A DNA stretch of 64,000 bases from Alphaproteobacteria bacterium (GCA_965227095.1 CBDDFL010000001.1:3039-67038); one strand, 5' to 3'; shown: positions 12,225 through 39,669, counted from the first letter of the stretch. Numbers and translations are program-made. Notes: generated by a model not told the origin, from the sequence alone.

Positions 12225-12594
12225 AATGTTGATGCGCAAAATGCCCGGACGGCTTGTCCCCACTCGTCTTCCTGACGAGGAAGTTATAAACGGCCTAAAA
12301 AATGGCGAACTGCTGAAGGTGCGGTTCAGCAGGCCTCGCAACCTGCGCCACCATAACAAATTTTGGAAGTTGCTGGACGTCGTTGCAAGCAATTCAGATC
12401 ACTACGAAACAGCGGAAGAGCTATGCGACGTTCTCAAGATAAAACTTGGGATTGCTGAAAAGAGAATTCAACAAGACGGAAACGTCTATTACAAGCTCGG
12501 CTCTATCGCGTTCAACAAAATGGACCAGGACGAGTTTCCCAGTTTTACGAACGTTGCATCCGGATCATTTGCAAACACTTCCTACCAGGCGTAA
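12217..12594 (+). CDS. DUF1367-like phage protein with an apparent frame disruption near 12535-12540
   Basis: RPRNLRHHNKFWKLLDVV is as I recall for DUF1367. The C-terminus appears to continue in another frame (QFYERCIRIICKHFLPGVTDAELRAEVEELVS, stop at 12636-12638). Confidence 0.5.
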   Translation: MAEMLMRKMPGRLVPTRLPDEEVINGLKNGELLKVRFSRPRNLRHHNKFWKLLDVVASNSDHYETAEELCDVLKIKLGIAEKRIQQDGNVYYKLGSIAFNKMDQDEFPSFTNVASGSFANTSYQA

Positions 12595-12742
12595 CCGACG
12601 CCGAACTCCGTGCCGAAGTTGAGGAGCTGGTTTCATGACCCAACTATTCACCGAAGTTCTTATGGGGATGGCTCCGAAGTTGCGTCTAGCTTCGACTTCT
12701 GAACACCCAGCCATCCCCTACCCCAATAGATGAGGTCCGCAA

Positions 12743-20612: not shown

Positions 20613-23600
20613 GTGGAATTGCGCCTGCCCGCCAGGCTGATCGAGGAGGGGCATCTCTCCGAAGCGCAGCTCGAGACCATCATCATGGCGCATGATGCCC
20701 ATGGGCGCGACCTGCCGGGGAGGTTCACCATCGATGACGACCAGACCAAGCTGACGCGCGCCGATGATGACCTGGACGCCAATGCCTATCGTCTCGGCTA
20801 TTTCCTCGGTGACGGCACCGGCTGTGGCAAGGGACGGGAATGCGCGGGGCTCATCCTCGTGAACTGGCTTGCCGGGCGCAGGAAGGCGATCTGGGTCTCC
20901 AAATCCGCCACGCTCATCGAGGACGCGATCCGCGACTGGACTGATCTCGGCGGCTCGCCCGCCGACATCCAGCCGCTGTCGAAATGGAAACCGGATCAGC
21001 CCATCCCCATGGGCGACGGCATCCTCTTCGTCACCTACGCCACGCTGCGTTCGGCGGGCAAATGCGGCACCTCGCGGCTGAGCCAGGTCCTCGACTGGAT
21101 GGGCGCGGGGTTCGATGGTGTTCTGGCTTTCGACGAAGCCCATGCCATGCAGAACGCGGCCGGGTCCGGGCAGGGCAGGGGGGTCAAACCCTCCCAGCAG
21201 GGCCTTGCAGGCCTCCGGCTGCAACTGGCCGCGCCACGCGCTCGCGTCTTTTACATCTCGGCCACGGGCGCCACCAGCGTGCACAACCTGGCCTATGCCG
21301 CGCGGCTGGGGCTCTGGGGGCAAGGCCCCGAATACCCCTTCCCGAGCAGCGAGAGTTTCGTCTCGGCGATGGAGGCAGGCGGTGTCGCTGCCATGGAAGT
21401 GGTCGCGCGCGATCTCAAGACGCTCGGGCTCTACACGGCGCGCGCCCTCAGCTTTGATGGCGTGGAATATGACGTGCTCGAGCACGCGCTCACCGCGGCC
21501 CAGATCGAGATCTACGACGCCTATGCGGGTGCGTTTCGCACGATCCACCACAATCTCGAGGCTGCACTGACCGCGACTGGCGTCAACGATGCCTCGGGAG
21601 AGACCAATGCCTCGGCCGCACGCGCCTCGGCCAAATCTCGCTTCGAGAGCACGAAGCAGCGCTTCTTCAACCATCTCCTGATGGGCATGAAAGCCCCGAG
21701 CATTATCCGTGCCATCGAGCAGGATCTGGCGGCGGGCAAGGCTTGCGTCATCCAGGTGGTTTCGACGGGGGAAAGCCTGCTGAAACGCCGACTTGAGACC
21801 ATGGACCCGGAGGACGAGCTGGTCGTGGGCGCGCTGACGCCTCGCGACTACGTGCTGGGTTATCTTGAGCAGGCCTTCCCGATTCATGCGCAAAAGTTGG
21901 TCGAGATCGACGGCAACATGGTGGCGGAACCTTTGCGCGACGAGACCGGTGCGTTGGTCGTCTCGCGCGAGGCGCTCGCCCTGCGCGATGCGGCCATGAT
22001 GGAGTTGATGACGCTGGCGCCGATCCCCTCGGCGCTCGATCAGATCCTCTGGGCCTTCGGCGACGAGGCCGTGGCGGAGGTGACCGGGCGCTCGATCCGG
22101 CCACTGAAGGCCGACGATGGCCATCTCTTCATCGAGAAGCGGTCGGCCAGCAGCAATTCCTCCGAGACCCAAGCCTTCATGGACGGCGAGAAGGACATCC
22201 TGATCTTCTCCGATGCGGGCGGCACGGGCCGCTCCTATCATGCCGCAAAGACGGCAAAGAACCAGAAACGGCGGCGGCACTATCTTCTGGAGCCCGGCTG
22301 GCGCGCCGACGCGGCCATCCAGGGGCTGGGCCGCACGCATCGCTCAGCCCAGGTCAGCGCGCCCTTCTTTCGGGTCTGCACCTCGGATGTGCATGGCGAG
22401 AAACGTTTCACCTCGACTATAGCCAAGCGCCTCGACCAGCTGGGGGCCTTGACCAAGGGCCAACGCGAGACCGGCTCGCAAGGCATGTTCCGCGAGGAGG
22501 ACAATCTCGAAAGCCCGATCGCGCGGGCGGCTCTGCGCGGCTACTACGCCGATCTTGCCGCCGGGCGGGCCGAGGCGATGAGCTATGAGAGCTTCACCGA
22601 CTGGACAGCCCTCCGCCTGATCGACAAGGACGGGGTGCTGCTCGAAGAGCTTCCGCCGATCCAGCGGTTTCTGAACCGGGTGCTGGCGCTGCCCATCCAC
22701 ATGCAGAACGCACTCTTTGCCGAGTTCATGCGCCGGATCGCCGATCAGACCGAACGGGCGCGCGCGGCGGGTACGCTCGATCTCGGCGTCGAAACCCTGC
22801 GTGGCGAAAAGATCGAACAGGTCTCCACGGAGGACCTCTGGACCTGCCCGAAATCCGGCGCGGTGACGCGGATCATTGGGCTTCAGGTCAAGGACCCGGT
22901 GTATGTGTTGTCCGCGGATGAGGCGCTCTCGCGCAATCCGGATAAGACCACGATGGTAAACCGCGCTTCGGGACGCGCGGCGCTCATCTCGGCGCGCCCC
23001 ATGCAGATGTATGACGAGGATATCGTCACCCTCATGCGCAAGGCGGTGCGGCCAAACGGGTCCAGCTATCTGGAGGAGGCGCGGTTCGAGTCCTCGGCCT
23101 GGGAAGACATCGGGAGGCACGAGTTTGCAGGGCTTTGGGATGCCGAGGCTGCGCCCCTGCCAAAAACCACCACGACCAAGCTCTACCTGCTGACCGGGCT
23201 GCTGCTGCCGATCTGGAAAGACATCCCGACCACCAATGAGCGCATCTACCGGGTCACGCCGGATGGGGCGACCGCCATGATCGGGCGCACACTGAGCGAG
23301 GAAGGGGCGGCCGCGCTGCGCGCCCGCTTCCTCGTCTCCAACCCGCAAACACCGCAAGAGATGCTGACCGCCGCCCTTGACACCACGGCGCCGGTCGATC
23401 TCGGCCGGGGTCTCACCCTGACCCGTCGCCGTGTCGCAGGCGAGATGCGCCTCGAGCTTGGCGGCGCCGACAAGGGCATGATTGATGGCCTCAAGGCCGC
23501 CGGCTGTTTCACTGAGATCATCGCCTTCCAGCTGCGGGTGTTCCTGCCGCATGGGGACGGGGTCGACACGGGCCGCATTCTGGCCCGGATCGTGGGGCAG

Positions 23601-23633
23601 GGAGCCGCCATGACGGCAGAACAAGCCGCCTGA
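20613..23633 (+). CDS. Strawberry-notch-like SF2 helicase, apparently truncated at the 5-prime end
   Basis: YFLGDGTGCGKGRECAGLILVNWLAGRRKAIWVSKS (Walker A region), LAFDEAHAMQN (DEAH) and a C-terminal strawberry-notch-type region. GTG start at 20613, with an in-frame TAA only 7 codons upstream at the composition break. Confidence 0.8.
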   Translation: MELRLPARLIEEGHLSEAQLETIIMAHDAHGRDLPGRFTIDDDQTKLTRADDDLDANAYRLGYFLGDGTGCGKGRECAGLILVNWLAGRRKAIWVSKSATLIEDAIRDWTDLGGSPADIQPLSKWKPDQPIPMGDGILFVTYATLRSAGKCGTSRLSQVLDWMGAGFDGVLAFDEAHAMQNAAGSGQGRGVKPSQQGLAGLRLQLAAPRARVFYISATGATSVHNLAYAARLGLWGQGPEYPFPSSESFVSAMEAGGVAAMEVVARDLKTLGLYTARALSFDGVEYDVLEHALTAAQIEIYDAYAGAFRTIHHNLEAALTATGVNDASGETNASAARASAKSRFESTKQRFFNHLLMGMKAPSIIRAIEQDLAAGKACVIQVVSTGESLLKRRLETMDPEDELVVGALTPRDYVLGYLEQAFPIHAQKLVEIDGNMVAEPLRDETGALVVSREALALRDAAMMELMTLAPIPSALDQILWAFGDEAVAEVTGRSIRPLKADDGHLFIEKRSASSNSSETQAFMDGEKDILIFSDAGGTGRSYHAAKTAKNQKRRRHYLLEPGWRADAAIQGLGRTHRSAQVSAPFFRVCTSDVHGEKRFTSTIAKRLDQLGALTKGQRETGSQGMFREEDNLESPIARAALRGYYADLAAGRAEAMSYESFTDWTALRLIDKDGVLLEELPPIQRFLNRVLALPIHMQNALFAEFMRRIADQTERARAAGTLDLGVETLRGEKIEQVSTEDLWTCPKSGAVTRIIGLQVKDPVYVLSADEALSRNPDKTTMVNRASGRAALISARPMQMYDEDIVTLMRKAVRPNGSSYLEEARFESSAWEDIGRHEFAGLWDAEAAPLPKTTTTKLYLLTGLLLPIWKDIPTTNERIYRVTPDGATAMIGRTLSEEGAAALRARFLVSNPQTPQEMLTAALDTTAPVDLGRGLTLTRRRVAGEMRLELGGADKGMIDGLKAAGCFTEIIAFQLRVFLPHGDGVDTGRILARIVGQGAAMTAEQAA

Positions 23634-23753
23634 AAAGTCAAAGCGGGCTTCCGGTCGGGCGTCGCGGATCTGGATTTGACCGGTCTGCGCTTTTCGGGCG
23701 CGCGCTGACCAATGCCACGCCCGGCCCCCAAATTCAGACAAGAGGACAGACCT

Positions 23754-24140
23754 ATGACCAATCCCCAAATGGACTATGCCGCGCTTTCGGCTCAGTGGCG
23801 CGCGGAGCGTGAAACCACCCTAAAGGCGACCCGAGCGGAGCTGCTCGCGCAACTACGTGCGCTTGGCATCAGCGAGGTCACTGCCGAATACGAAGGCTAT
23901 GGCGACTCCGGCAATGTCGAGGATGTGACGGTGCAGCCTGCAGACGTCAAACTACCGGAGCCGCTTGCCACAGAGGTTGGCGACTTCGCCTGGTCGCTCG
24001 CCTATCACCATCACCCGGGGTTCGAAAACAACGAGGGCGGCTACGGCACGCTGACCTGGGAGATCACCGGCGACAGTATCACTCTCGATCACGCGGACCG
24101 CTATGTCGAATGCTCGCACAGCTATGACGAGGGGCTTTGA
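23754..24140 (+). CDS. Conserved hypothetical conjugative-element backbone protein
   Basis: Start chosen at MTNPQMDY after AGAGGA. 128 aa, family not confidently recognised. Confidence 0.55.
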   Translation: MTNPQMDYAALSAQWRAERETTLKATRAELLAQLRALGISEVTAEYEGYGDSGNVEDVTVQPADVKLPEPLATEVGDFAWSLAYHHHPGFENNEGGYGTLTWEITGDSITLDHADRYVECSHSYDEGL

Positions 24141-24141
24141 T

Positions 24142-24603
24142 ATGGCTCACCCGCTTCATCATGCCGAAAGCTCTGCCCGGAAATTCGGCGGGGTGCCGTC
24201 TGACTATCAGGCTGTGCACGACTGGTTTGACGCCTCGAAAGAGCACCTCGCGCTCTTCACGCACAGAGCCTTGCGTCACCATGCCCAAGGCCTGTTCGAG
24301 GCCGAACGTGTCTTCGGCCTGACCCTGACCAATAGCGCTGGTCGCGACATCCCCGTGCGCTGGATCGGCGAGCAACATGTTCGCGAAGACTGCCAGGGCC
24401 GTATCCCGAGCATGGCGGACTGGCTGCGACGGATACAGCCTGAGCCATGGATGGCCAATGGCCACATCGACCGGCATTCCGGCGATGAGCCCTGCGGCGA
24501 CCCAAGGGTTGCCTGGGCCTCCGAGGTCGCCGCCGGAAGAACGGTTCTTGGCCTGAAGGATTGGATGGCGGCGCGCGCGACGCAAGCCACGCAAGGTGCC
24601 TGA
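24142..24603 (+). CDS. Conserved hypothetical backbone protein
   Basis: Start chosen at MAHPLHHAESSARKFGG, 1 nt after the previous stop. Confidence 0.55.
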   Translation: MAHPLHHAESSARKFGGVPSDYQAVHDWFDASKEHLALFTHRALRHHAQGLFEAERVFGLTLTNSAGRDIPVRWIGEQHVREDCQGRIPSMADWLRRIQPEPWMANGHIDRHSGDEPCGDPRVAWASEVAAGRTVLGLKDWMAARATQATQGA

Positions 24604-24703
24604 CAGCTCTCGGCCGTTGGCCAAACAAATGCTGCATGGAAGCCCGGTTGGACGACCGGGCTTCTTGCGTCGTTTCCCCACTATTCTTCTTGAGGAGGTT
24701 CGC

Positions 24704-25006
24704 ATGACACTCGATGAAATCAAGGCGGCCGTCGATGCCGGCCAGACCGTGCACTGGGCCAATACCGGCTACGTTGTCCACAAGGACCGGCTCGGTCAGT
24801 ACCTCATCACCTATTTGCCGAATGGTAGCTGCATCGGTCTGACCGACCGGGGCGGGCACCGGCTGAACGGAAAAGAGGCGGAGTTCTTCATCGCGCGATT
24901 GGAGGACGGCGCGGAAAATCCGGGCAGCCAATCAAGACCAGACCGGCAGGGGAGGGGCGTAGCACCCGGAGGCGCGGGGGCATTCCCACTCGGACGGCAG
25001 CTCTGA
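24704..25006 (+). CDS. Hypothetical small protein
   Basis: Start at MTLDEIKAAV, preceded by GAGGAGG. Confidence 0.5.
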   Translation: MTLDEIKAAVDAGQTVHWANTGYVVHKDRLGQYLITYLPNGSCIGLTDRGGHRLNGKEAEFFIARLEDGAENPGSQSRPDRQGRGVAPGGAGAFPLGRQL

Positions 25007-25130
25007 CCCGTGGGCGGGGCTGAAAGGAAAGCAGGCTTTCTGATTTGTGATCCCACGAGGGGTCGAGAAAGCAATCCCGGATGCGCTGGCAAGGACGTCA
25101 GACACCGGCCAATCCAAAAGGAACCATCCC

Positions 25131-25859
25131 ATGTTCGCAGGAACCCTCACCCGCAATGTCGAGACCGCAGCCGCTCAGTACACCGGCATGATCCACTCGA
25201 CGCGCTTTGACATCGCCATCCAGTTGGAGGCGCGGGCCAAGATGTCCGAACGCAGCCCGGATTTTGACGTGACGGCAGTCAACAAATCAGGCCGCAAGGT
25301 GCGCATCGGCACGGCCTGGAACGAGACCGGCAATACCAGCGGCAACCCCTACATCTCGATGCAGATCGATGTCGGCTTCGGCCCGTTCCGGGTCAACGCG
25401 GTGCAGACGAAAGAGGCGCGTGCGGCCCAGAGCGGCGAATTCGAGATCATCCCGCTGGCCTCGAACGGCCTGATGAAATCCGGCTCGATCTCGGGCGAGC
25501 TCACCGCCATGGACGCCGACAATGCCTTCACCGGCTATATCGCCAACATGATGTTCGATCTGGAGTTCATGCTGATCGAGAACAGCTACAAATCCGAGGA
25601 GACCCACCCCGATTACCGCATCGAGGTCAGCTCCCCCAGGGGCACACCGGTCCGCGTCGGCTCGGCCTGGATGGCGAAAAGCGGCCGCACGGGCAATGAC
25701 TACCTGTCGCTGCTGATCAACACGCCCGATGGCGACCTGCGCGTCAACGCCGTGCAGAACGAAGAACAGCGTGGCGGCCAGACCTTCTCGATCATCCCGT
25801 TCATCGACAACGGTGAGCAGCCGCAGGACGCAGGCGCGGGGTTGTCGCTGGTCGCATGA
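25131..25859 (+). CDS. Tandem DUF736-like domain protein
   Basis: Two internal repeats (KVRIGTAWNETGNTSGNPYISMQIDVGFGPFRVNAVQ and PVRVGSAWMAKSGRTGNDYLSLLINTPDGDLRVNAVQ) resemble the DUF736 core common in conjugative elements. Confidence 0.65.
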   Translation: MFAGTLTRNVETAAAQYTGMIHSTRFDIAIQLEARAKMSERSPDFDVTAVNKSGRKVRIGTAWNETGNTSGNPYISMQIDVGFGPFRVNAVQTKEARAAQSGEFEIIPLASNGLMKSGSISGELTAMDADNAFTGYIANMMFDLEFMLIENSYKSEETHPDYRIEVSSPRGTPVRVGSAWMAKSGRTGNDYLSLLINTPDGDLRVNAVQNEEQRGGQTFSIIPFIDNGEQPQDAGAGLSLVA

Positions 25860-25892
25860 TCAACGCGCGAGATTAGACGATCTGCACCGAAA

Positions 25893-25926
25893 GGGGAGCC
25901 GTGGGATCACGGTTCCCCTTTTTCTT
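25893..25926 (+). terminator. Rho-independent terminator after the DUF736-like gene
   Basis: GGGGAGCCGTG-GGAT-CACGGTTCCCC stem-loop followed by TTTTTCTT. Confidence 0.7.
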
Positions 25927-26231: not shown

Positions 26232-27653
26232 TTACGTCTCATAGAAACGCTTTAGATCGCGTCGCTTGCTCAGTTGTTGCGGTCGGTATGGTTTGACCTC
26301 TCCGAATTGAGCGACCGCGGTCGCCTGCATGCGTTCTTGTACGGATGGGTGGAGAGGGAAATCGTCGCCGACTTCTCGGATTCCTTTTTTCCATGGAATG
26401 CTGACTGGTCCGAACGCCAAGATCGCGTCCTCGCGGTGCTGCAGGCCCAAAGGGTCAGGAGCGCGGTTAAGGTAATTTTCGTTGATTTTGATTGAAGGCA
26501 CACACTCCTTCAACTCATCGACCATCCAGTCTAGGGCGATATCACTGAGACGGGATTCGGCCTCGGGGTAGCTGCCACCGATGTCGCTGTGACAACCGGG
26601 GAACCAGACCTGCTTGAGCCAAGCCGGCTCTCGGTTCTTGGTCTCAATCGCGGCTTTTTTGGACGCCCAACCAACTCGCGGGAAGTCTGCGCGGTCTTCA
26701 TCGATCGCCATGGCGTGGCGGGCGTGGTTTACGTCGGGGTCCAGCCACATGTCGTAGTTGCGCTTGTTCCAAGCGGCGAAATGCCCTGTCTTCAGAATCT
26801 TTGGCCAGTCTGTAGGGCGCAATATCTTCAATTTGCGATCAGGATCATCCGAGAAATACTTGAAATTATCCAGCAGTAGAGAGCCAAGCTGCCACATGAG
26901 CGCGCCGAGTAAGAAGCCGAGAGGGACGACCAGAAGCAATGACCACCCTAGCACAAGCCCGGCGACGAAGGCGGCACCGGTTGCAAACGTAATGCCCCAG
27001 ACCAGAGTGCGCACGACTGCCGTCCGCAATGATGCCACCGTATCGAAAACCCCGATGAAGGTCGGCTGGACGTTGCCTTGGTTGTCATCACCCTCCTGCG
27101 GGGTACTCGAATACTTCTGGCGAAACCTGCGACCAAGCTCTTCGCGGTGCTTGAAGTACGGGTTCTGCCCGCGAGGCTTTCCGGCACCGTGGTTATAGAC
27201 GAACTTCACTGCATCCTTAGCGATCTTGCGCAAACCGGGCCCGTGGCGCGGGACGGGTTCGCCATCGGGCATTTGTGTCGGGATACCGCAAAGGTTCATG
27301 ACATTCGCCAGTGCCCTGACCGTGTACGCCCCGCGCGAGAAGCCGAACAGCAGCACACGGTCACCGGGCTCATAATGGGCGATGATCTGTTCATAGCAAT
27401 CGATGATATTGTGATCGATGCCGGTGCCGACTGCGCTTTCAAGGATAGGTTTGACGCGGCCAAAGAGTCCCCCGCTTTCGCCCGTGCCCAGCCCAGGATC
27501 GTAAAAGGTGACTTGATCCTTTGGGCTAATTGGTGAGTCTGGGCCGGGACGCATGGCGCGATACATCTTGTAGACGTTCGAAAGGCGTTGGTCCGGCCTA
27601 GACCCGCCCATTTGCCCGGTTCCATCGGAAAAAATACAGATATTCTTTGTCAT
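26232..27653 (-). CDS. DUF2235 (T6SS Tle1-like alpha/beta hydrolase) with two inserted transmembrane helices; third gene of the SMODS operon
   Basis: ICIFSDGTGQ N-terminus, GFSRG nucleophile elbow, GVFDTVAS and PGCHSDIGGSY, as in DUF2235/Tle1. A hydrophobic stretch (VVRTLVWGITFATGAAFVAGLVLGWSLLLVVPLGFLLGALMWQLGSLLL) lies between the catalytic Asp and His regions. Starts 3 nt after the SLATT stop. Confidence 0.8.
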   Translation of the reverse strand: MTKNICIFSDGTGQMGGSRPDQRLSNVYKMYRAMRPGPDSPISPKDQVTFYDPGLGTGESGGLFGRVKPILESAVGTGIDHNIIDCYEQIIAHYEPGDRVLLFGFSRGAYTVRALANVMNLCGIPTQMPDGEPVPRHGPGLRKIAKDAVKFVYNHGAGKPRGQNPYFKHREELGRRFRQKYSSTPQEGDDNQGNVQPTFIGVFDTVASLRTAVVRTLVWGITFATGAAFVAGLVLGWSLLLVVPLGFLLGALMWQLGSLLLDNFKYFSDDPDRKLKILRPTDWPKILKTGHFAAWNKRNYDMWLDPDVNHARHAMAIDEDRADFPRVGWASKKAAIETKNREPAWLKQVWFPGCHSDIGGSYPEAESRLSDIALDWMVDELKECVPSIKINENYLNRAPDPLGLQHREDAILAFGPVSIPWKKGIREVGDDFPLHPSVQERMQATAVAQFGEVKPYRPQQLSKRRDLKRFYET

Positions 27654-27656
27654 TAT

Positions 27657-28256
27657 TTACCTTTTGCCTTCAGCTTGATTGACTTCTGTCTGTTTAGGCC
27701 GTCCGCCGGATCGCTTTAGCGAGAGCGGAAGAAAACAGTCTATCTCGTCAGCTGTGAAGGTCATGTCTTCCATCTCCTTCAGCCGTCTTTGGGCCTCCTC
27801 GTAGGCTTTTCCGTCAGTCTGAGGTGCGCCTTCATAGAGGGCTGCAAGTATGGCCTGTAACTCGTCCCGACGCTCAACTGCGGCTTCACGTGACAGTCTC
27901 GGCAGATCGGTTAGCAGTGAGAGGTAGCATTCTCGGACGTTCCAGAGCTTCGCGGCTGCGTCACGATGTTTTTGGGCGATAGCACCGGGGTCGAAGTTCT
28001 TCAGATAGGCCGCCACAAATAGCGTCATAAATGAAATGCCGACAGTCGCGATCTCGACCCATAATTCTTCTCCCACCACGACTCCGATCGCCCCTGCGCT
28101 CGTCAGTGCTGAAAGGGTGATTTGCACAATCTTGTACCAGCGAAGTGTATCGGCAGAGCGATCGGCCATACGTTCGTGGGTTTTGTGGGTATAGACCACC
28201 CGTCCGAAGCATTCACGGACCTGATCCTCGAACGCGATATCGTAATCAGGCGGCAT
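27657..28256 (-). CDS. SLATT-domain 2TM protein
   Basis: RVVYTHKTHERMADR followed by two hydrophobic helices (YKIVQITLSALTSAGAIGVVV, VEIATVGISFMTLFVAAYL) and a helical tail, as in SLATT families. Start chosen at the ATG at 28256, preceded by GAGGA-N8; it overlaps the SMODS stop by 11 nt. Confidence 0.75.
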   Translation of the reverse strand: MPPDYDIAFEDQVRECFGRVVYTHKTHERMADRSADTLRWYKIVQITLSALTSAGAIGVVVGEELWVEIATVGISFMTLFVAAYLKNFDPGAIAQKHRDAAAKLWNVRECYLSLLTDLPRLSREAAVERRDELQAILAALYEGAPQTDGKAYEEAQRRLKEMEDMTFTADEIDCFLPLSLKRSGGRPKQTEVNQAEGKR

Positions 28257-29571
28257 AGTGTTCATCCTCGGCATCCCGGACACGAATCGGAACCCGGACG
28301 GTGTCGCGCGCAACGACCACGCCCCGACTGACCGCGTAGCATTCTACGAGGTGATCACCACGGAAATTAGTGGTCTCTCGGCGCTCACCGCGACCTTCAT
28401 CGCGCAGGATCTGTCCCCGTATCATGTCTCGACGCTCGGCTTCTTCGCCACGGTTCAAGACCTTCCAGAACACCTCGGCATCGTCGGGAAGATCGGTTGC
28501 ATCTGCGATGAAGAATCGAAGGCTCTTCTTCGGCAGCAGGACGCCATGCCGCTCCAAGAGGTCACGGAGCATTCCCGGCCGGAATCCATCCTGCGTCACT
28601 TCGCAGTTGATGCGAAGGTGGTATCGAATATCGACCGGAAATCTGTCTTCGACAAACTGTTCAGTATTTTTGAAGACATGTGCGAATGCCGTGGCCTCTC
28701 CCGCAGCACTTCTTGCGGGCGCTGGGTAGGCGTTTCCGAACACATCCCGCCATTTCTGGCGCTCATTCTTCTGTCCGCTCGCGTCGATGGCTTTCAGACA
28801 TAAATCGTATGCCTTCTTCGCCTTCCGCTCGAACCGCTTCTTGACACGGACGCGTTGGCGACTGCCAAGAGCTGCATACTCGGATTGCTTGGGCTGATCA
28901 GCCAGGAATTCGAAGAAATCTCGGCACATGTAGTCGTAGTAGTGGAAGCTCTTGGTATCGTATTTGTCGGTCGACTCGAGGAAGTTGTAGGCGAGAGTGT
29001 CGATCAGAAGGCCACCCATGGCCACGCCGTGCTTGTTCTTCCAGGCGCGCGCCATCTTGCACAAGCGGCGAAGGTTCCGGTTCTTGCGCTCATTGGCTTC
29101 ACTCATTTCATTGAGTTCAGCCTGTGGCTTGGTAATCTTCCACGACCCACCTTTTGCGGTGTCAGGGTACTTGTAGCTGCCATCAGCCAGCTTGAAGGCC
29201 GGCATCACTTCGATGTGGAAATCGTTGTAAAGCACTCGGACAACCAAACGATCCACCTTGACGGTCGTCGAAGGGTATCGCCGCTTGATCGCAGCCTTGG
29301 CATCGTGAAGAAGCCTATACTGGCCCCCATCCTTGTAGCTATCCCACTTCCCGGCAGGCATGATGTAGATCATGTCCAAGTCGGAAATGCCCTTGATCGC
29401 CGTCCAACGGCCATAGGAGCCAACTTGAAGGCTGTTAGCCGTTTTTGACTCTGTGTCGCGAAACTCCTTGTTAAGGGAAGCAGTGACTTCGCCGTATCGC
29501 AAGGCAATCGTCGCGGCATTGTCGATCTTGATGTTATCGAGAAAGGTCTTGAAGTCTTCCGAGATGCCCAT
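28246..29571 (-). CDS. SMODS-type nucleotidyltransferase (CD-NTase-like) with a C-terminal extension (possible AGS-C-type sensor)
   Basis: FKTFLDNIKI...LQVGSYGRWTAIKGISDLDMIYIM (GS...DxD pol-beta NTase motifs) and DFHIEVMPAF. About 150 extra C-terminal residues (FWKVLNRGEEAERRDMIRGQI). Confidence 0.8.
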   Translation of the reverse strand: MGISEDFKTFLDNIKIDNAATIALRYGEVTASLNKEFRDTESKTANSLQVGSYGRWTAIKGISDLDMIYIMPAGKWDSYKDGGQYRLLHDAKAAIKRRYPSTTVKVDRLVVRVLYNDFHIEVMPAFKLADGSYKYPDTAKGGSWKITKPQAELNEMSEANERKNRNLRRLCKMARAWKNKHGVAMGGLLIDTLAYNFLESTDKYDTKSFHYYDYMCRDFFEFLADQPKQSEYAALGSRQRVRVKKRFERKAKKAYDLCLKAIDASGQKNERQKWRDVFGNAYPAPARSAAGEATAFAHVFKNTEQFVEDRFPVDIRYHLRINCEVTQDGFRPGMLRDLLERHGVLLPKKSLRFFIADATDLPDDAEVFWKVLNRGEEAERRDMIRGQILRDEGRGERRETTNFRGDHLVECYAVSRGVVVARDTVRVPIRVRDAEDEHYAA

Positions 29572-29620
29572 TGAAGCCTCGCGTTTTTACCGGTTCAGCG
29601 CCTCTTAGGCCGATGCGGCG

Positions 29621-29730
29621 GTTTACAAATTTGCCTTCCTTTTGGCGTCATGTTACAATCTAGGGACAATCTGCCGCGCTTTCAAGCGTTGTAGTTTACA
29701 AAATATCAATCATATGGGTGAAATGTAAAC
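29621..29730. promoter_or_regulatory. Divergent promoter/operator region between the SMODS operon and the XRE-ImmA gene
   Basis: GTTTACAAA at 29621 and 29694, TGTAAAC (inverted) at 29724 and GTTACAA at 29652. Plus-strand sigma70-like promoter: TTGCCT, 17 bp, TGtTACAAT (29631-29659). Confidence 0.5.
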
Positions 29731-29749
29731 CACCCACTGGGAGGACGTT

Positions 29750-30811
29750 ATGATTGGCAAGAGACTCAAAGGAGCCCGGGCGGCATCTGGCCTCTCGCTA
29801 CGTGCACTTTCCGATGCCATGGAGAACAAGGTGTCCGCTCAAGCCATAGGCAAGTACGAGCGCAATGAAGACATGCCCGGATCGGGCGTGCTGCTAAGTC
29901 TTGCCCGAGCACTCGGCGTCTCTGTGGATTTCCTGCTCAGCGATGATGAGCTTGAGTTGGAGGGCGTTGAGTTTCGCAAGTCAGCCAGCTCTTCAGCCAA
30001 AGAGATCGCGACGATCGAAGCCAAGACGCTCAATATGGTTGAAAAGTACCTAGCTATCGAAAGCTTGCTGAATCTTTCGAGCCAGGAATGGGATGCCCCG
30101 CACGAAGCACCCTATTGGGTGGCCGATGTTCGTGATGCCGAGGACGCGGCTCGCAACATGCGTGCTTCTTGGCAGTTGGGTCATGACCCGATTCCAATGC
30201 TTGCCGAACTCCTCGAGGAGCACGGGATCAAAGTGCTGTCTTTGGATGTTGATCGGATTGACGGGCTTGCGGCGAAAGTGCGTCGAAAAGAGCATCACTC
30301 CGCCCGTGTTATCATGATCAAGAAGAAGACCTGGTCTGAGCGGAAGCGCTTCAGTTTAGCTCACGAATTGGGCCACATGGTTCTTAAAGTCGCCGAAGGG
30401 TGCGATTCAGAACGCGCCGCAAATCGATTTGCTGGTGCATTCCTCGTTCCGGCAGAAGTGCTACGGCAGGAGATTGGTGCCCGCAGAACGGACATAAGCA
30501 TTGGTGAGCTCATTAGTCTGAAGGATCGGTTTGGCGTCAGCATTCAAGCGCTGACGTATCGATGCAAGGATTTGGAGATTATCAACCAACCAACCTTTGC
30601 GCGCCTGTTCAAGGTCTATAAGCAACGAGGTTGGCGGGATGAGCCGTTCGAGGAGCCAAATTCCATTCCTTGGGAGCGAGAAGAACCGGACCGCTTTCAG
30701 AGGTTGTGTTTTCGTGCCCTCTCCGAGGGGTTGATTGGGTTGTCTCGCGCAGCTGAGCTTCTCGAAATACGAGTAAAAGAACTGGAAGAACGTTTGGACC
30801 ACATGGCATAG
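29750..30811 (+). CDS. XRE-family HTH fused to an ImmA/IrrE (COG2856) zinc metallopeptidase domain
   Basis: N-terminal HTH (LSLRALSDAMENKVSAQAIGKYERNEDMP). HEXXH motif AHELGHMVL. Strong RBS GGGAGGA. Confidence 0.85.
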   Translation: MIGKRLKGARAASGLSLRALSDAMENKVSAQAIGKYERNEDMPGSGVLLSLARALGVSVDFLLSDDELELEGVEFRKSASSSAKEIATIEAKTLNMVEKYLAIESLLNLSSQEWDAPHEAPYWVADVRDAEDAARNMRASWQLGHDPIPMLAELLEEHGIKVLSLDVDRIDGLAAKVRRKEHHSARVIMIKKKTWSERKRFSLAHELGHMVLKVAEGCDSERAANRFAGAFLVPAEVLRQEIGARRTDISIGELISLKDRFGVSIQALTYRCKDLEIINQPTFARLFKVYKQRGWRDEPFEEPNSIPWEREEPDRFQRLCFRALSEGLIGLSRAAELLEIRVKELEERLDHMA

Positions 30812-30818: not shown

Positions 30819-31304
30819 GTGCAAGTTCTTGTTTCCGATACCTCCGTCCTGATCGACATCGAGAGAGCCTCGCTGACTGCGAGGCTCTTTGACCTCCCCT
30901 ATGATTTTGTTGTTCCAGATATTCTTTATGAAGCGGAACTCCTCGACTGGATGGGCCCTGATCTGATCGATCTGGGACTGAGAGTGGAAGAGCTTACGCC
31001 AGAAGAAACCACACGCGCGACAGAGCTGAAGCGGGCGAAAGCTATGTTATCGACGCCAGATGTCTTTGCATTTTGCCTCGCGGCTGAAAGGGGTTGGGTT
31101 CTCCTTACCGGAGACGGTGCGCTCAGGGTTGAGGCAGAGCGCCAAGAAATCGCGATGCATGGCGTCTTGTGGGTCTTCGATGAGATGGAGCATCACGAGG
31201 TTTGTTCGACCGCCCTCCTCAAGTCGGGTCTCGAAGCGGTTCGTGATCATCCGAGATGCAGACTTCCCATAAGGGAAATCAATCGGCGCCTCGCGCGATA
31301 CTAA
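30819..31304 (+). CDS. PIN-like domain protein (COG2405/DUF3368-like)
   Basis: VLVSDTSVLIDIER...FVVPDILYEAEL and LLTGDGALR follow the PIN-like pattern. GTG start 8 nt after the ImmA-fusion stop. Confidence 0.55.
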   Translation: MQVLVSDTSVLIDIERASLTARLFDLPYDFVVPDILYEAELLDWMGPDLIDLGLRVEELTPEETTRATELKRAKAMLSTPDVFAFCLAAERGWVLLTGDGALRVEAERQEIAMHGVLWVFDEMEHHEVCSTALLKSGLEAVRDHPRCRLPIREINRRLARY

Positions 31305-31896
31305 TATGTTCCCACACTCTGGTGAAAGACAAATGTTGCCAAGTTTTTCTTTGATCTAGCCTCACGGCCTCCCCTGCTCGGCTTCGCGTGTCGCAGGCGA
31401 GAACGGCCCTTCGGTCCGTCGCGCATTCGGCCATTCGGCCTCACCGCGGCGTTGCGCCAGCATCCCGGTTTGCCCGCCTCGCGAGCACTGCGCTCCCCGG
31501 CCGCTCCGCCGGATTGCGCTCTGGTCTGTTTTGCGGGGCAAAACGATCCCGCCGCTCCATCCGTCTGTCCCGCGTCCGGTCACGCCGTTTGCCTGCTCGG
31601 GTCGGGCAAACCTACCGTCAAAACACACACACATGAGCGTGGAAGCATATCCTCCGGATGGCCCCCAAATCAGCCCGCGTCAAGGATCACAAAACTTTTC
31701 GGCGAGGGCGGGGCCTATGGCGCGGGGCGGTCCCGTATGTGAGCGCGCGCATGTATCGGGTGCTGCGCGTGGAAAACTTTTGCGCCCGGCAGGCCGGCGG
31801 CTGCGCCGTCCCTGACCCGGGCAGATTCGGAAACCAGATATTCGGCCATGCCACCACACTCACGTGGTGGTCAGTCAAACATCTGGAGATACCAAA

Positions 31897-32826
31897 ATGG
31901 CTTACGACCAAGCGAACACCTACGAGACCATCGAGCTTTTCGGGCTGACCGAGAAGGACGCCCATCTGCCGATCCCGGAAGATCACATCCTGAAGGACAG
32001 CATCATCCGCGAAACCTTCGAGACCCTGCTCGGGCAATTGCGCGGGACCGGCCTCGAGGCAGAAATCGAACCGCTGGCCCACGGGTTCGCGACGATCCTG
32101 CAACGGCGCAAGGTGACGCTCGGCAAGGAGGTCGATCGCACAGCCGACAAGATCGGCGCGCTGGCAAAATCTCACGACGGATCGGAGATCGCCGAGACGG
32201 CGCTCGAAGAGGCGCAGGCGCGCTTTCTGCAGCTGCGCGAGATCGTAGGCGCCATCGAGGTGATGAGCGAAGCAGCAGCGGAATGCTACGAGATCGAGAC
32301 GGGACATGCCTTCATCCCGGCGGCAGGGTCACGCGCCAGTGGTCGGGCGCAGGAGACCGGGGCCGTCTTCGAGGCCCGGCAGCTTCTGGAGCAGCATGAT
32401 CGCGAGACGGCCGCGAAGTCCAAGGTCGAAGGCGTGCCGCTGATTGTCTCCGGCGCAACCGACTGGACCGATATCGATGTGATCTTCAATACGCTCGACA
32501 AGGTTCGGGAGCGGATCAAACAAAACCGCAATCAGGAGATCTTCCTCTGCCACAAGGGTGGCAAGCACGGGGCCGAGATGATCGCGGCCCGGTGGGCCCG
32601 GGCGCGCGGGGTCGCGCAGGCGCGGTTCGATCCGCGCTGGTCCGCGCATGGGCGGGCGGCACCGTTCAAGTGCAATGACGAGATGCTGGACGACAAGTTT
32701 GCGGCGACGGGGGTTGTTCTCTTCGGCGGCAATGGCGTGGCGCTGAACCTCGGCCAGAAGGCAGAGGCGAAAGGGCTGACGGTCATGCGGGTCGCCGATC
32801 CGGCGAAGAAGACCGCGGAGATTTGA
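31897..32826 (+). CDS. DUF2493 (SLOG-superfamily) domain protein, conjugative-element backbone
   Basis: C-terminal PLIVSGATDWTDIDVIFNTLDKV...IFLCHKGGKHGAEMIAARWARARGV matches DUF2493. Start chosen at MAYDQANTYE after GGAGA. Confidence 0.7.
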   Translation: MAYDQANTYETIELFGLTEKDAHLPIPEDHILKDSIIRETFETLLGQLRGTGLEAEIEPLAHGFATILQRRKVTLGKEVDRTADKIGALAKSHDGSEIAETALEEAQARFLQLREIVGAIEVMSEAAAECYEIETGHAFIPAAGSRASGRAQETGAVFEARQLLEQHDRETAAKSKVEGVPLIVSGATDWTDIDVIFNTLDKVRERIKQNRNQEIFLCHKGGKHGAEMIAARWARARGVAQARFDPRWSAHGRAAPFKCNDEMLDDKFAATGVVLFGGNGVALNLGQKAEAKGLTVMRVADPAKKTAEI

Positions 32827-33062: not shown

Positions 33063-34088
33063 ATGATAGGCATGACCCCTCTTAGCAGTATCGCGATGAG
33101 CGCCTACACCGATCTGGTGCGGCTCCTGAAGGATGACGCGCTATCCGGTGTGGAGGGCAAACCAACGCTCAAAGAGCGCGGCGACAAGGCCTATTGGTAC
33201 GCGGCCCGCCGTGTCGGAACCGAGATGCGCTTCATCTATATCGGCGAAAACAGTGATGAGACGCGCGCGCGCATCGAGCGTATCGAGGAGCTGCGCGCGA
33301 CCGCCAAGGACCGACAGGCTGAGCGGTCCCGGCTGGTCCGACTCTTGCGCGCCGAAGGCATGACGCCGACCGACCGGGCGACCGGCTCGATCCTCTCCGC
33401 AATGGCGGGTGCCGGGACCTTCCGGCTGGGTGGTACGATTGTCGGGACGAATGCGTTCCGGCTCTATGAAGGCGAGCTTGGCATCCGCTTGCCTCTCGGC
33501 GGCATGGCCAACACCGGCGATATCGACATCGCGCAATTCGAGAAGCTCAGCGTCGCCTTGCAGGATCAGGTCGATCCGGGTTTGGCCGAGACCTTTTCGG
33601 CACTGAAGTTCGCGCCCGTGCCCGGGCTCGACAACGGCCGGACATGGCGATGGGCGCAGGGGGGCAGCGGCCAGTTGGTCGAGTTCCTGACGCCTGCCTT
33701 CGGGAATGAGACCATCCGAGATTTGCCCGCTCTCGGCGTGGGCGCGCAGGCGCTCAACTACCTCAACTTCCTGATCGCTGAACCGATCTTTGCCGCAGCC
33801 CTCTATCGATCAGGAGTTCTCGTTCAGGTGCCGCGCCCGGAGCGCTATGCGATCCACAAGCTGATCATCGCCGATCGGCGACGCGACGGGGCCGGCAGCC
33901 TCAAGTCGGCCAAGGACCGGGAACAGGCGGCCTTTCTGATCGAAGCGATGGGCGAGGACCGCCCTGATGATCTGGCCCAGGCTTATGCCACCGCGCTGGA
34001 GGTTGGCCCGCGCTGGCGAGAGCACATCGACAATTCGCTGAAGCGCATGCCGGAGACGAAGTCCATCCTCGAAAGCTTGGGCGCGTGA
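33063..34088 (+). CDS. Nucleotidyltransferase-fold protein (GSU2403-family-like)
   Basis: 341 aa. The N-terminal region (YTDLVRLLKDDAL...KAYWYAARRVG) and central GTNAFRLYEG...GDIDIAQF resemble the family as I recall it. An alternative start is at 33072. Confidence 0.45.
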   Translation: MIGMTPLSSIAMSAYTDLVRLLKDDALSGVEGKPTLKERGDKAYWYAARRVGTEMRFIYIGENSDETRARIERIEELRATAKDRQAERSRLVRLLRAEGMTPTDRATGSILSAMAGAGTFRLGGTIVGTNAFRLYEGELGIRLPLGGMANTGDIDIAQFEKLSVALQDQVDPGLAETFSALKFAPVPGLDNGRTWRWAQGGSGQLVEFLTPAFGNETIRDLPALGVGAQALNYLNFLIAEPIFAAALYRSGVLVQVPRPERYAIHKLIIADRRRDGAGSLKSAKDREQAAFLIEAMGEDRPDDLAQAYATALEVGPRWREHIDNSLKRMPETKSILESLGA

Positions 34089-35130: not shown

Positions 35131-36831
35131 CCGAACACATGCCAGACCGTGTGAAAACGGCGGCCTTCTGGCCGCGAATACGGAGAACGATCGGTCTTTG
35201 GATATATCGTGTGGAAATGGGCTTTGAGTGGCCTAACGTCGGCCAGCAGAGGCTATTGAGGGCGTGACAGGGCCAGCCGCGCATTTTCTGGCGCCGAAAC
35301 AGTCGCAGGTTGGTTGCCTACACCCGTGCTGCTTGGATTAGGGTCGGCACTCCGACCAATGTGATCGCCCGGCGGATGTTGTAGGCGAGCGCCGTTAGGC
35401 TGAACTCGCCACGGACGTTATCCAGACGGCGTGTCAAAAACGCGCCTTGACCCATCCATTGCTTGATGGATCCGAAGGGGTGCTCGACGGTCTCGCGGCG
35501 CTGATCGAGCGCTTCGGGGCGGGCGGCAAGGCGCTCAGCCATACGTTCTAAAACCTCTTCGTTTTCATATCGCGAAACAGTTCGAGCCTCACTTCCGGTA
35601 CATCGCGGCTTGAGCTGGCACTGCTTGCAGGCGCGGTAGTTGCGATATTTCTGCTCGAAAACACCATCTCGGACGTAAAGCTTTTTCCCATTCGGGGGGA
35701 GGGTCTGACCGCCGGGGCAGGTGTAGCGGTCTGCCGTCGCGTCGTATTGAAATCGCTCTTTGACAAACAAATTTCTACTCGCGGCAGCCCCACGCCGCGG
35801 CCTTGGGACGATTGGAAAGGCGCTCCCTGCTTCGCTGGCCTCGATATCCTCGATCGCGAAATACCCCTTGTCCGCGACCACATTGATGCGCTCAACATCC
35901 AGCGCCTCGCGTGCCGCAACCGCGGTCGTTGCGAGCAGCCCAAGGTCGCTTACCTTGGAATGAACTTGTTGCTCAGCGATCAACTTGTGCTTCACATCCA
36001 CGGCGATCTGGATGTTATAGCCAACGCCAACGCGCGTGTTGCGATCCATGGCGCGGGCGTCAGGGTCGGTCAGAGACAGTTGGTCCGCGCCGGTCTCCTC
36101 CAGTTCTTTTTGATGGCCGATCAGCCGTTCGCGCCGCGCCTTCATAGCTTCGATTTTCTTGGAAATATCCTCCTTCGACGCGATATCAGCGTTACCGTCA
36201 TCCTCTGCATCTGCATTGTTGAGGGAGGTGAGATAATGTTCCAATCGCTTGTCGATCAGAGCCAAATCGCGCTTGAGCGAAGCTTTGGTGAAATTCTTGC
36301 CACCGTTGTTCACCGCCTTGATCCGTGTCCCGTCCACAGCCAGCAGCTCGCGCCCGAAAAGATCAAGGTCTCGGCACAGCCGAACAAACTGCCGGAAGAC
36401 GTTCCGAAATGCTGATCGATTATCCTTCCGGAAATCGGCTATTGTTTTGAAATCCGGCTTTAGATGCCGCATCAGCCAGATCACCTCAAGATTGCGGTGC
36501 GCTTCGGCCTGCAGACGGCGGCTTGAACGCACCCGGTTTAAGTAACCGTAGATGTAGAGTTTGAGCAGGTCAGCCGGATCGTAACCTGGTCGGCCGGTCG
36601 ACTTGGGCATCGCCCGCGCGAACCCAGCTGCAGCGAGGTCAAGCCCGTCAACAAAGGCATCGATAAACCGCACTGGATTGTTTGGGCCAACGTAGTCTTC
36701 AACGCGCTCCGGCAAAAGCAACGCTTGCGAACGTGGTGTTCCGGTCATGTATCTCATGCCTCAGCATACTCCACAAACGCCGCAACAGGAATCCCAAGCC
36801 GCCGTTTTCACACGGTCTGATGCGTGTTCGG
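35131..36831 (-). mobile_element. IS1182-family insertion sequence
   Basis: Imperfect 33-bp terminal inverted repeats: CCGAACACATGCCAGACCGTGTGAAAACGGCGG at 35131-35163 and its inverted partner at 36799-36831 (29 of 33 match). They flank a single DDE transposase gene. Confidence 0.8.
35318..36757 (-). CDS. IS1182-family transposase
   Basis: 479 aa. The N-terminus QALLLPERVEDYVGPNNPVRFIDAFVDGLDL...GRPGYDPADLLKLYIYGYLNRVRSSRRLQAE is typical of IS1182/IS5-like transposases. Confidence 0.9.
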   Translation of the reverse strand: MRYMTGTPRSQALLLPERVEDYVGPNNPVRFIDAFVDGLDLAAAGFARAMPKSTGRPGYDPADLLKLYIYGYLNRVRSSRRLQAEAHRNLEVIWLMRHLKPDFKTIADFRKDNRSAFRNVFRQFVRLCRDLDLFGRELLAVDGTRIKAVNNGGKNFTKASLKRDLALIDKRLEHYLTSLNNADAEDDGNADIASKEDISKKIEAMKARRERLIGHQKELEETGADQLSLTDPDARAMDRNTRVGVGYNIQIAVDVKHKLIAEQQVHSKVSDLGLLATTAVAAREALDVERINVVADKGYFAIEDIEASEAGSAFPIVPRPRRGAAASRNLFVKERFQYDATADRYTCPGGQTLPPNGKKLYVRDGVFEQKYRNYRACKQCQLKPRCTGSEARTVSRYENEEVLERMAERLAARPEALDQRRETVEHPFGSIKQWMGQGAFLTRRLDNVRGEFSLTALAYNIRRAITLVGVPTLIQAARV

Positions 36832-37018
36832 CCAGACCCTCGGGCGGGGCTGGAGAAGGGGACCCATTGGACAGGTGGGTTCCTTGATGGTGAGGGAGGC
36901 AGGGCCTCGCACCTTTGGTGCTCGGCGTGAAGCGGAATACAAGGCTGCGGAGACCAGAAGCAACATAAGTATATTATTGACAGTCTGGTATAGTATCGTA
37001 TGGTGGGGCAGCCTTGTA

Positions 37019-37568
37019 TGAAGTTGGCAGGAAAGGTTGGGACCACTTGTGTCGTCCAGTCCGGAAGCGGGTCGCCACCAAACCCAAAGATTGCTTGCAT
37101 CGGATCACCGAACACAACCGTTGGAATTGCGTTCGCGAGGCCAGAAGTGATCAGGTGTTGGCTCACCGAACAGTCTTGGTACTCATCGACCAAGACCCGC
37201 GAATACGTTGCGGCAATCTCTGAATTGATGGCCCCAGATGCACATAACCCACCAACCGCGTTTTGCACTGCGGTGTAGTTGGGCGCATTTTCCGGATCAT
37301 GCAGGTATCCTGCTCGCTCCGGAAACATGGAGATAATTGTCAGTGCCCAGCCCGCAATCGTATTGAGCCTGTAGTTGGACGCTGGCACGCCATCTCGATG
37401 CAACCTCTGCCTTAGCGCGGCAACGCCAGCGGTGGTGTGGGTAAGGACCAGGACCGGCTTACCTTCTGCCTGAACAATGGTCTTTGCGATCAACTCGGTC
37501 TTGCCGCATCCTGCGGGAGCTATGACATGCCCGCGTTGCGCCTGAAGTATGTCGGGTACGCCAACCAC
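37019..37568 (-). pseudogene. gajB: UvrD-like helicase (GajB-like), 3-prime truncated
   Basis: Walker A APAGCGKT, Walker B VLVDEYQD and motif III VVFGDPMQAIFGF are present. Helicase-like sequence stops after about 183 codons and the ORF then reads through unrelated DNA into the IS1182 end. Confidence 0.7.
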
Positions 37569-39359: not shown

Positions 39360-39669
39360 AATTCACCTCTAACATACTGGGACAGTAGCATGTTTACCTC
39401 TTGCCCTAAAGTTGTGTTTGGATGCCCTTTTGCAAGCGATTCAGTCCATAGGAATGAAGCGGTTGTTGGATAGTCGGGGTCGAAGGGCCGCTTCGTACCG
39501 CCGAGCAGAAGTTTGGCAGTTTTTTGGGAATGCAGCCGCAGCGAAAGTCCGGAATGACGAGCCGCAGTGCAGCGGCGAGAGATTTCTCCCGAGGTCCGGT
39601 AATGGGATGTACCGGCTGCTTCACCCAGCAGGTTAGGCTTTGCCTATTTCTGCACACAGGAGAAGTAGC

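Follow-up and report, generated by a model that had tools for sequence, protein, structure and literature searches.

A putative type I CBASS operon with a coupled lipase gene in mobile DNA of the Roseobacter group

In a 64,000-nucleotide stretch of DNA from an alphaproteobacterium (GCA_965227095.1, CBDDFL010000001.1:3039-67038; hereafter, at its full length, the window), three minus-strand genes form a translationally coupled operon that encodes a cGAS/DncV-like nucleotidyltransferase (CD-NTase) with SMODS and AGS-C domains, a two-transmembrane (2TM) SLATT protein and a putative lipase of the DUF2235/Tle1 family. We consider it probable that this operon is an ordinary type I system of cyclic oligonucleotide-based antiphage signalling (CBASS) to which an independent cargo gene, that of the lipase, has become transcriptionally fused. 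The lipase is likelier to be separate cargo than a third CBASS part because the same gene also adjoins other, unrelated defence systems. The trio itself is real and old, and a functional link between its parts retains some probability because the three-gene arrangement, which the initial annotation of this sequence allowed might be conserved in no other genome, is present in seven genera or more, the junction being the same in each. The genes are the following:

28246-29571, minus strand: CD-NTase with SMODS and AGS-C domains, 441 amino acids (aa), first gene of the operon
27657-28256, minus strand: putative SLATT_4 effector with two transmembrane (TM) segments, 199 aa counted from the ATG
26232-27653, minus strand: predicted serine hydrolase of the DUF2235/Tle1 fold (the lipase), 473 aa, last gene of the operon

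All three open reading frames (ORFs) lie on the minus strand exactly where the initial annotation had placed them: the SLATT ATG (28256) overlaps the SMODS stop codon (28246-28248) by 11 nt, and the lipase ATG (27653) lies 3 nt past the SLATT stop. The longest possible SLATT ORF starts at a TTG at 28313, the start assigned by PGAP in a sister plasmid is an ATG three codons further upstream, and the genes overlap with either start. A purine-rich, Shine-Dalgarno-like stretch precedes each of the three starts, and a promoter scan gave no promoter-like site ahead of the lipase ATG within the 3' end of SLATT.

The CBASS core and the lipase

The assignment of the first protein as a SMODS-like enzyme with the pol-beta GS...DxD signature, made in the initial annotation, is borne out at several levels. 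The GSYGRWTAIKGISDLDMIYIM motif stands at residue 51, with GS...DxD spanning residues 51-66, and G51-S52...D64-x-D66 are invariant across 11 homologues; the Pfam SMODS domain covers residues 1-160 (1.1e-47, 162.7 bits against a cut-off of 26.5), and the PADLOC Cyclase model PDLC00796 is matched over positions 1-430 of 432 (1.5e-192). The score of 120 bits with the NCBIfam model CBASS_cyclase_b lies under the equivalog cut-off of 200 and places the protein outside that particular subfamily. The closest solved sequences are the nucleotidyltransferase chains 6P8U, 6P82 and 6P8J (E 3e-9), which we take to be HORMA-associated CdnC/CdnD enzymes. The gene evolves under a dN/dS of 0.05. The approximately 150 additional C-terminal residues that had been suggested as a possible novel receiver of the signal are indeed present, but they represent the known AGS_C domain (Pfam, residues 301-430, 9.3e-46), an Ig-like domain that is thought to modulate the sensing of phage by the cyclase and not to serve as the receiver of the effector.

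The second protein, likewise, is the two-helix SLATT-like protein that had been proposed, with a Pfam SLATT_4 match at 1.5e-60, a full-length match to the PADLOC Effector 2TM model PDLC00696 (8e-74), an NCBIfam SLATT_4 score of 143.8 bits against a cut-off of 55, and two TM segments predicted from hydropathy at residues 43-62 and 65-85. Among the genes flanking the operon, which encode a helix-turn-helix (HTH)-M78 regulator, a PIN-like ORF, DUF2235 and DUF736, there are no Cap2/Cap3 (E1/E2, JAB), HORMA/TRIP13 or type IV ancillary genes. Thus, a CD-NTase active site and an operon-adjacent effector are combined with the absence of type II, III and IV ancillary genes, in keeping with the definition of type I CBASS as a CD-NTase plus one effector (10.1101/2022.04.27.489752). 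Judged by sequence, the first two genes have the architecture of a type I CBASS whose effector is 2TM/SLATT, one that is known from catalogues already because both genes give full-length matches to the PADLOC cyclase and 2TM models and because SMODS-AGS-C/SLATT operons of type I have been published: the CD-NTase-AGS-C fusion is present in about 40% of type I CBASS operons, the EcCdnF04/05-SLATT6 operons defend E. coli against many phages (10.1101/2023.05.21.541620), and in a survey of lactococcal plasmids type I CBASS consisted of a SLATT effector (PF18186) and an NTase/AGS-C protein (PMC11381338). Therefore, the proposal of a new CBASS-like variant holds only to the extent that the three-gene operon is uncatalogued, the SMODS-AGS-C and SLATT_4 combination being catalogued. 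By analogy with these relatives, the window operon would be expected to synthesize a cyclic nucleotide and to protect against phages.

The third protein belongs to PF09994 (T6SS_Tle1-like_cat; 1.7e-64, 218 bits against a cut-off of 27) and shows the motifs GFSRG at 104, FDTVAS at 203 and CHSDIGGSY at 354, in which S106, D204 and H355 are invariant in 50 homologues. Hydropathy reveals a block of 46 hydrophobic residues (216-261) between the Asp and His motifs. In the AlphaFold2 model, built with 50 homologues (pLDDT 84.5, pTM 0.87), an alpha/beta-hydrolase core is accompanied by two helices of 25 residues each (211-235 and 239-263) that extend outwards between the strand of the Asp and the region of the His, and by a small C-terminal beta/alpha region (approximately residues 385-473) that lies outside both the core and the TM hairpin. 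In a Foldseek search, the only matches at or near significance were 4O5P, 9J3F (phospholipase TleB) and 4M0M (Legionella lpg2422), with a probability of 1.00 to 4O5P and 9J3F and a low similarity overall (TM-score of about 0.32, 14-16% identity), followed by generic esterases and thioesterases. The entry 4O5P, labelled as an uncharacterised protein in the PDB, is presumably Tle1/PA3290 of P. aeruginosa. When the lipase was compared with the PDB by sequence alone, no match emerged, and PADLOC and NCBIfam gave none either. The DUF2235/Tle1 identity, the two hydrophobic helices between the Asp and His regions and the want of an obvious known sensor domain, all read from the sequence initially, thus stand: PF09994 is the sole family found in Pfam, PADLOC and NCBIfam, and none of the cyclic-nucleotide sensor families (SAVED, STING, CARF, cNMP-binding) was detected.

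The lipase has no signal peptide. Because of this, and because both halves of the protein flank a single TM hairpin, the model is best read as a membrane-tethered Ser-Asp-His hydrolase whose catalytic domain would face the cytoplasm. The gene evolves under a dN/dS of 0.02-0.05, and the protein is predicted to have lipase activity. The possibility that it is an effector for a type VI secretion system (T6SS) was considered and abandoned, given the internal TM hairpin and the fact that T6SS neighbours were not seen: VgrG, PAAR, Hcp and Tli were absent from the 25 commonest neighbour families (of 142 matched) and from the annotated product names. A phage origin was dropped as well, no relative having been found on viral contigs. 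Our literature search retrieved no paper that ties DUF2235/Tle1 to CBASS or to anti-phage defence, and there is no catalogue entry. For brevity, the proteins with this hydrolase domain and TM hairpin are denoted DUF2235-2TM.

Where the lipase gene and the cyclase-SLATT pair occur

The lipase family is large, with 3963 matches at E <= 1e-10 among the scored candidates, 463 relatives among the GTDB species representatives and 119 plasmid records in a tblastn search. Its neighbourhoods were sampled in 80 species-representative loci, in which ORFs were called, clustered and searched with CD-NTase and SLATT seeds. A CD-NTase gene lies within 8 kb of the lipase gene in 9 of these 80 loci, to which L076, with E1/JAB/SAVED genes of a partial type II system, can be added; in about 70 of the 80 there is no SMODS-SLATT pair and the lipase gene stands alone. 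Homologues at 38-62% identity are single genes in non-conserved surroundings, next to genes for TIR, HTH-PIN, RES-Xre, Gabija, Dsr1, integrases, oxidoreductases and other housekeeping functions. A mix of defence, toxin-antitoxin, integrase and housekeeping genes surrounds the clade at 52-63% identity, as seen with PADLOC and Pfam among the 25 commonest families listed.

Roseobacter-group plasmids with the same trio, L001 among them, have about 94% identity to the window, and sister plasmids carry quite different systems in the slot that separates virB11 from the lipase gene: a type I CBASS (L015, pSMR1-6), a CBASS resembling type III (L002), a type II CBASS encoded on the other strand (L003, L091, with L026 also having a type II neighbour), Hachiman with a small WGR gene (L088, L089, L187, with Hachiman also present in the L018-L024 set), or unannotated genes. 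The lipase proteins of sister plasmids with such differing cargo are 96-100% identical, those of L026 (type II CBASS neighbour) and L020 (Hachiman neighbour) being 100% identical, and it is precisely at the lipase ATG that the nucleotide sequences of the plasmids become homologous again. A single strain, S. indolifex DSM 14862, has two copies of the gene, one behind SMODS-SLATT and the other behind Hachiman. For the cargo beside the lipase that is neither CBASS nor Hachiman (L009, L010, L014, L017, L021, L022), PADLOC was mostly negative.

The exact resumption of homology at the ATG suggested that the lipase might be a backbone gene of this plasmid family, an idea that was discarded in view of about 25 plasmids with the same type IV coupling protein (T4CP) gene (88-92% nucleotide identity) that have no lipase gene. 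In these, homology breaks right after the T4CP stop codon, and the slot is occupied by SIR2+ATPase/WYL genes, 7-deazaguanine genes or insertion sequence (IS) elements. The lipase is cargo, not backbone.

On the CBASS side, the contexts of SMODS-AGS-C relatives were collected from four look-ups and 80 metagenome loci. Sorted by identity of the SMODS protein to that of the window, they are:

at least 94%, 10 of 10 loci: lipase gene downstream of SLATT (trio)
88%, L092/L093: lipase gene upstream, divergent, abutting a T4CP gene
86%, L094/L095: lipase gene absent
82-84%, 5 loci: full trio
82-84%, 4 loci (L110-L112, L173): lipase cut down to about 119 aa, pair intact
74-79%, 6 metagenome loci and one Rhizobium-type locus (L097/L098, recovered twice): lipase gene absent
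68-69%, L125-L127: lipase gene upstream, same strand
58-64%, about 50 loci: lipase gene absent, save in L149

The trio is conserved only among relatives with a SMODS identity of at least 82%. The loci with a truncated lipase (about 6922-7392 in L112), in which SMODS is 100% and SLATT 99.5% identical to the copies of the L015 lineage, resemble a deletion mutant that arose in nature, with the third gene affected. The type II cassette (90-93% nucleotide identity) is found in 12 plasmids, with the lipase gene in 2 of the 12, and the type III cassette in 2 plasmids, with the lipase gene in one. Its position next to systems of types I, II and III had suggested that the lipase might assist CBASS in general, a notion weakened by these identical cassettes, which mostly lack it. 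At every level of relatedness, the SMODS-SLATT pair and the lipase each exist without the other, and neither of the marks of a three-gene system was found, namely consistent co-occurrence and, in the family searches and the model, a signal-receiving domain in the third protein. The view of the lipase as a specific partner of SMODS and SLATT, implicit in the initial annotation, finds no support: its orthologues flank Hachiman and type II and III CBASS, pairs without a lipase gene exist, and most homologues stand alone.

Possible roles of the third gene

Taking as given the domain identities, the fold, the operon coupling, the pattern of conservation and the modular exchange that are observed here, we would reconstruct the workings of the locus by analogy, as follows. 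A repressor of the CapH/CapP type, in fused form, would silence the operon until DNA damage or infection; the CD-NTase, its SMODS domain accompanied by AGS-C, would be held off until infection and then make a cyclic (oligo)nucleotide; and the SLATT_4 protein would respond to this signal by compromising the inner membrane, leading to abortive infection. The lipase, in this reconstruction, would be autonomous cargo carried by the mobile elements of the Roseobacter group; in one lineage its gene would have been stripped of the upstream region that it once had and would have ended up as the final cistron of a CBASS operon, so that the lipase would be co-expressed with CBASS but would probably not receive the CBASS signal.

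Several observations weigh against such independence and favour, instead, a three-component type I CBASS, in which the lipase would be an accessory second effector that hydrolyses inner-membrane phospholipids and thereby reinforces or accelerates abortive infection, triggered by the cyclic nucleotide or, indirectly, by the membrane perturbation that SLATT induces. We regard this as the leading competitor but as a rather unlikely one. Foremost among these observations, the coupling junction GAAGGCAAAAG[G/C]TAAAT[A/C]ATG is identical in the window and L015/L096 lineages, the three proteins of which are 84/80/87% identical in amino acid sequence, and it has been kept despite saturation of synonymous sites (dS > 2 or undefined). 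All three genes are under strong purifying selection (dN/dS 0.02-0.09), the catalytic triad of the lipase being invariant. Apart from the genera mentioned above, the trio was found on about 20 metagenome contigs, and the lipase-bearing block sits in varied contexts, including a plasmid beside T4CP, a region resembling an integrative and conjugative element beside DUF736, and a Cohaesibacter chromosome near an integrase gene.

Two loci add to this case. In L125 (2196-6859) the order is permuted: a regulator 91% identical in amino acid sequence to that of the window is followed by the lipase gene (500 aa), which again is coupled at a distance of 3 nt, in this case to SMODS, and then by SLATT. 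The structural proteins of L125 are 59-68% identical to those of the window as against 91% for the regulator, which suggests that the regulator and promoter module was exchanged by recombination; the L125 lipase, however, is 92% identical to the copy in L058, which adjoins a TIR gene and no CBASS. In L149 (4386-9086), a SMODS-AGS-C gene is directly followed by a DUF2235-2TM gene, in what may be the effector position, and then by a convergent pair of a short SMODS gene (301 aa) and a SLATT gene whose product, 54% identical to that of the window, could belong to either cyclase. When each independent juxtaposition is counted once, the lipase family is found next to CBASS (types I, II and III) more often than next to anything else, a count that is uncorrected for phylogeny and for the high frequency of CBASS on plasmids of this kind. 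A cytoplasm-facing membrane lipase is plausible as a suicide effector, and there are precedents both for a phospholipase effector, CapV, and for a type I operon with two effectors, CapV and Cap5 (10.1101/2023.05.21.541620).

Against this stand the findings that make us prefer the independent cargo gene. The lipase has no detectable sensor domain, and lipases with 96-100% amino acid identity neighbour Hachiman as well as CBASS of types II and III, which come with other cyclases and with effectors of their own; the type II and III cassettes usually do without the lipase. SMODS-SLATT stays intact where the lipase is absent or truncated, and most members of the lipase family are stand-alone genes. 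A broader form of the effector hypothesis can be contemplated as well, namely that DUF2235-2TM is a new class of membrane-tethered immune phospholipase effector, which would act as a CBASS accessory in the trio lineage and as a stand-alone or "plug-in" abortive-infection module elsewhere; we advance it tentatively, as something that we would not expect to prove correct.

Alternatively, the lipase could serve the mobile element itself, through lipid remodelling, entry exclusion or conjugation, and its adjacency to CBASS would then reflect nothing but a common cargo slot beside the coupling-protein gene. This would agree with the position of the lipase gene in the plasmid clade, where it abuts T4CP/relaxase genes, with the clade at about 60% identity, in which it follows relaxase-T4CP in L034-L036 and is near it in L044, with L179, where about 5 kb separate it from the gene of a MobF relaxase, and with the failure to find it on viral contigs. 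Nevertheless, we deem a role in the mobile element improbable: the approximately 25 plasmids with the same T4CP gene and no lipase gene imply that transfer does not depend on it, for most homologues no conjugation gene lies within 8 kb, and the neighbours often are defence genes, such as those of pAgo (prokaryotic Argonaute), ThsB/TIR, AbiE, PD-Lambda-1, QatD, Gabija and Dsr1. That the adjacency means nothing, the third gene being in decay or a one-off accident of assembly or insertion, is highly improbable, since the truncated copies in four metagenome loci are set against an ORF that in the window is intact, with invariant catalytic residues and strong purifying selection, and an arrangement that many sources have in common, complete plasmids as well as genomes and metagenomes.

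If the lipase did turn out to be an effector or amplifier, this would be a new effector chemistry for CBASS and an effector module common to unrelated sensor systems. With the cargo gene reading that we prefer, the finding contributes an example from the Roseobacter group to the familiar class of type I CBASS with SLATT and documents, in marine Rhodobacterales plasmids, a slot for defence cargo extending from virB11 to the coupling-protein gene, in which CBASS of types I, II and III, Hachiman, SIR2-ATPase and 7-deazaguanine systems are exchanged. It also brings into view DUF2235-2TM as a large, strongly conserved and mobile family of membrane lipases, predicted to face the cytoplasm and repeatedly coupled translationally to CBASS, for which we found no literature outside type VI secretion. 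The family and its recurrent coupling to CBASS seem a reasonable experimental lead.

Regulator, surroundings and related systems

The following features accompany the operon:

29750-30811, plus strand: fused HTH_3 and Peptidase_M78 (ImmA/IrrE) protein, CapH/CapP-like, 353 aa, divergent from the CBASS operon
29572-29749, no strand: divergent promoter/operator region, 178 bp between the CBASS operon and the regulator
30819-31304, plus strand: small ORF with weak PIN-like similarity, 161 aa, directly downstream of the regulator
25889-25922, plus strand: GC-rich hairpin of 15 bp between the convergent DUF736 and lipase genes

The regulator matches Pfam HTH_3 (8e-11, residues 6-62) and Peptidase_M78 (2e-20, residues 156-273) and contains the HELGH motif; an HTH domain and an HExxH metallopeptidase, encoded divergently from the operon, are the distinguishing features of the CapH/CapP type, in analogy to which the regulator might release the operon upon DNA damage. 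Fusions of capH and capP have been reported for 15 CBASS systems (10.1101/2022.04.27.489752). The intergenic region contains three copies of the motif GTTTACA/TGTAAAC, which are candidate operator sites, three sigma-70-like sites on the minus strand (29729-29657) and one on the plus strand, and two inverted repeats, I2 and I3, with the common arm TGTAAACCAC(C). A regulator of the same cluster, 353 aa long, heads the type III-like CBASS of L002. The PIN-like ORF matches Pfam PIN at 3.5e-4, under the gathering score; nucleotide homology between L125 and the window spans both regulator and ORF, which indicates that the ORF travels with the regulator, and it may be a third regulatory component or a toxin. 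The hairpin, with 15 pairs, 8 of them GC, and a T-rich tail on the plus strand in a terminator scan, is likely to be the transcription end for the convergent DUF736 and lipase genes.

The AT-richer island in a conjugative element, next to other defence genes, that had been proposed as the setting of the operon was recovered: GC content is 0.53-0.56 across 26-31 kb and 0.60-0.65 on both flanks, Gabija genes lie at 36.7-39.4 kb, and type IV secretion system genes lie beyond. About 7 kb from CBASS, GajA (37575-39359, minus strand, 594 aa) gives a full-length PADLOC match (2.7e-214), and GajB (36699-37568, minus strand, 289 aa) matches only the first approximately 180 positions of GajB models of about 470 aa, appearing to be cut by an overlapping DDE transposase gene (35318-36757); an IS110 transposase gene follows at 39640-40728. 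Near the CBASS regulator there are genes for a YAcAr/SLOG-family protein (31864-32826, plus strand; DUF2493 in the annotation of a sister plasmid), homologues of which recur near SMODS-SLATT pairs in L113 and L120, and for an NTP_transf_8 nucleotidyltransferase (33063-34088, plus strand). Downstream of the lipase, 20613-25859 is a block typical of the leading regions of conjugative elements, with a large ORF for a strawberry-notch-like helicase (20613-23633; so annotated in L001) and genes for DUF6878, DUF6915 and DUF736 proteins. The left part of the window, also of lower GC content, encodes a Toprim/DnaB-like primase-helicase (4311-5828), a Dam-type methyltransferase (7575-8498) and a pentapeptide-repeat/DUF5758 protein (12743-13699); the gene content of 4311-13699 is typical of a prophage or integrated element and is separate from the CBASS island.

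In Roseobacter-group plasmids (L002, L003, L015, L088, L089, L091, L183-L188), the region between virB11 and the T4CP/relaxase genes is a cargo hotspot, with type I, II and III CBASS, Hachiman, SIR2+ATPase with WYL and SbcCD-like genes, QueC/glycosylase 7-deazaguanine genes and IS elements. Many plasmids have a small WGR-domain gene (about 85-130 aa) that forms a divergent pair with the lipase gene, and many others have it by itself; the product could be a regulator or a sensor of DNA nicks. Examples are:

L088:8551-8805, L089:8551-8826 and L187:7551-7826: small WGR-domain gene

Compared with known systems, the closest counterparts of the core are the EcCdnF04-SLATT6 CBASS and that of the lactococcal pUCCL631, which have the same two-gene core of overlapping genes from the SMODS, AGS_C and SLATT_4 families and likewise lack Cap2/Cap3 and HORMA/TRIP13; the window operon differs in being an alphaproteobacterial version from Roseobacter-group mobile elements and in having a third co-transcribed gene after the effector and a fused CapH/CapP regulator. 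This regulator resembles CapH/CapP, as well as ImmR/ImmA and DdrO/IrrE, in combining an HTH repressor with an M78/IrrE metallopeptidase divergently upstream of CBASS, but, unlike in the canonical two-gene form, which is that of the L015/L096/pSMR1-6 lineage, the domains are fused in one protein, the minority form, and a small PIN-like ORF follows. The lipase shares PF09994, the GxSxG elbow, the Asp and His motifs and its best structural matches with the Tle1-family T6SS phospholipases (4O5P; TleB of X. oryzae, 9J3F); however, it has 473 aa where the solved Tle1 proteins have 680-740 aa, contains an internal two-helix membrane anchor and, in contrast to the secreted Tle1, is presumably kept in the inner membrane of its own producer. 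The two-effector type I CBASS VvCdnG09-CapV-Cap5 is an earlier example of a type I operon with more than one effector, and CapV, a patatin-like phospholipase, is one of killing through the hydrolysis of phospholipids. CapV is a soluble patatin-fold phospholipase that is activated directly by cGAMP, whereas the lipase is an alpha/beta-hydrolase of the Tle1/DUF2235 fold that carries a TM hairpin, lacks a recognised ligand-binding domain and matches no PADLOC effector model.

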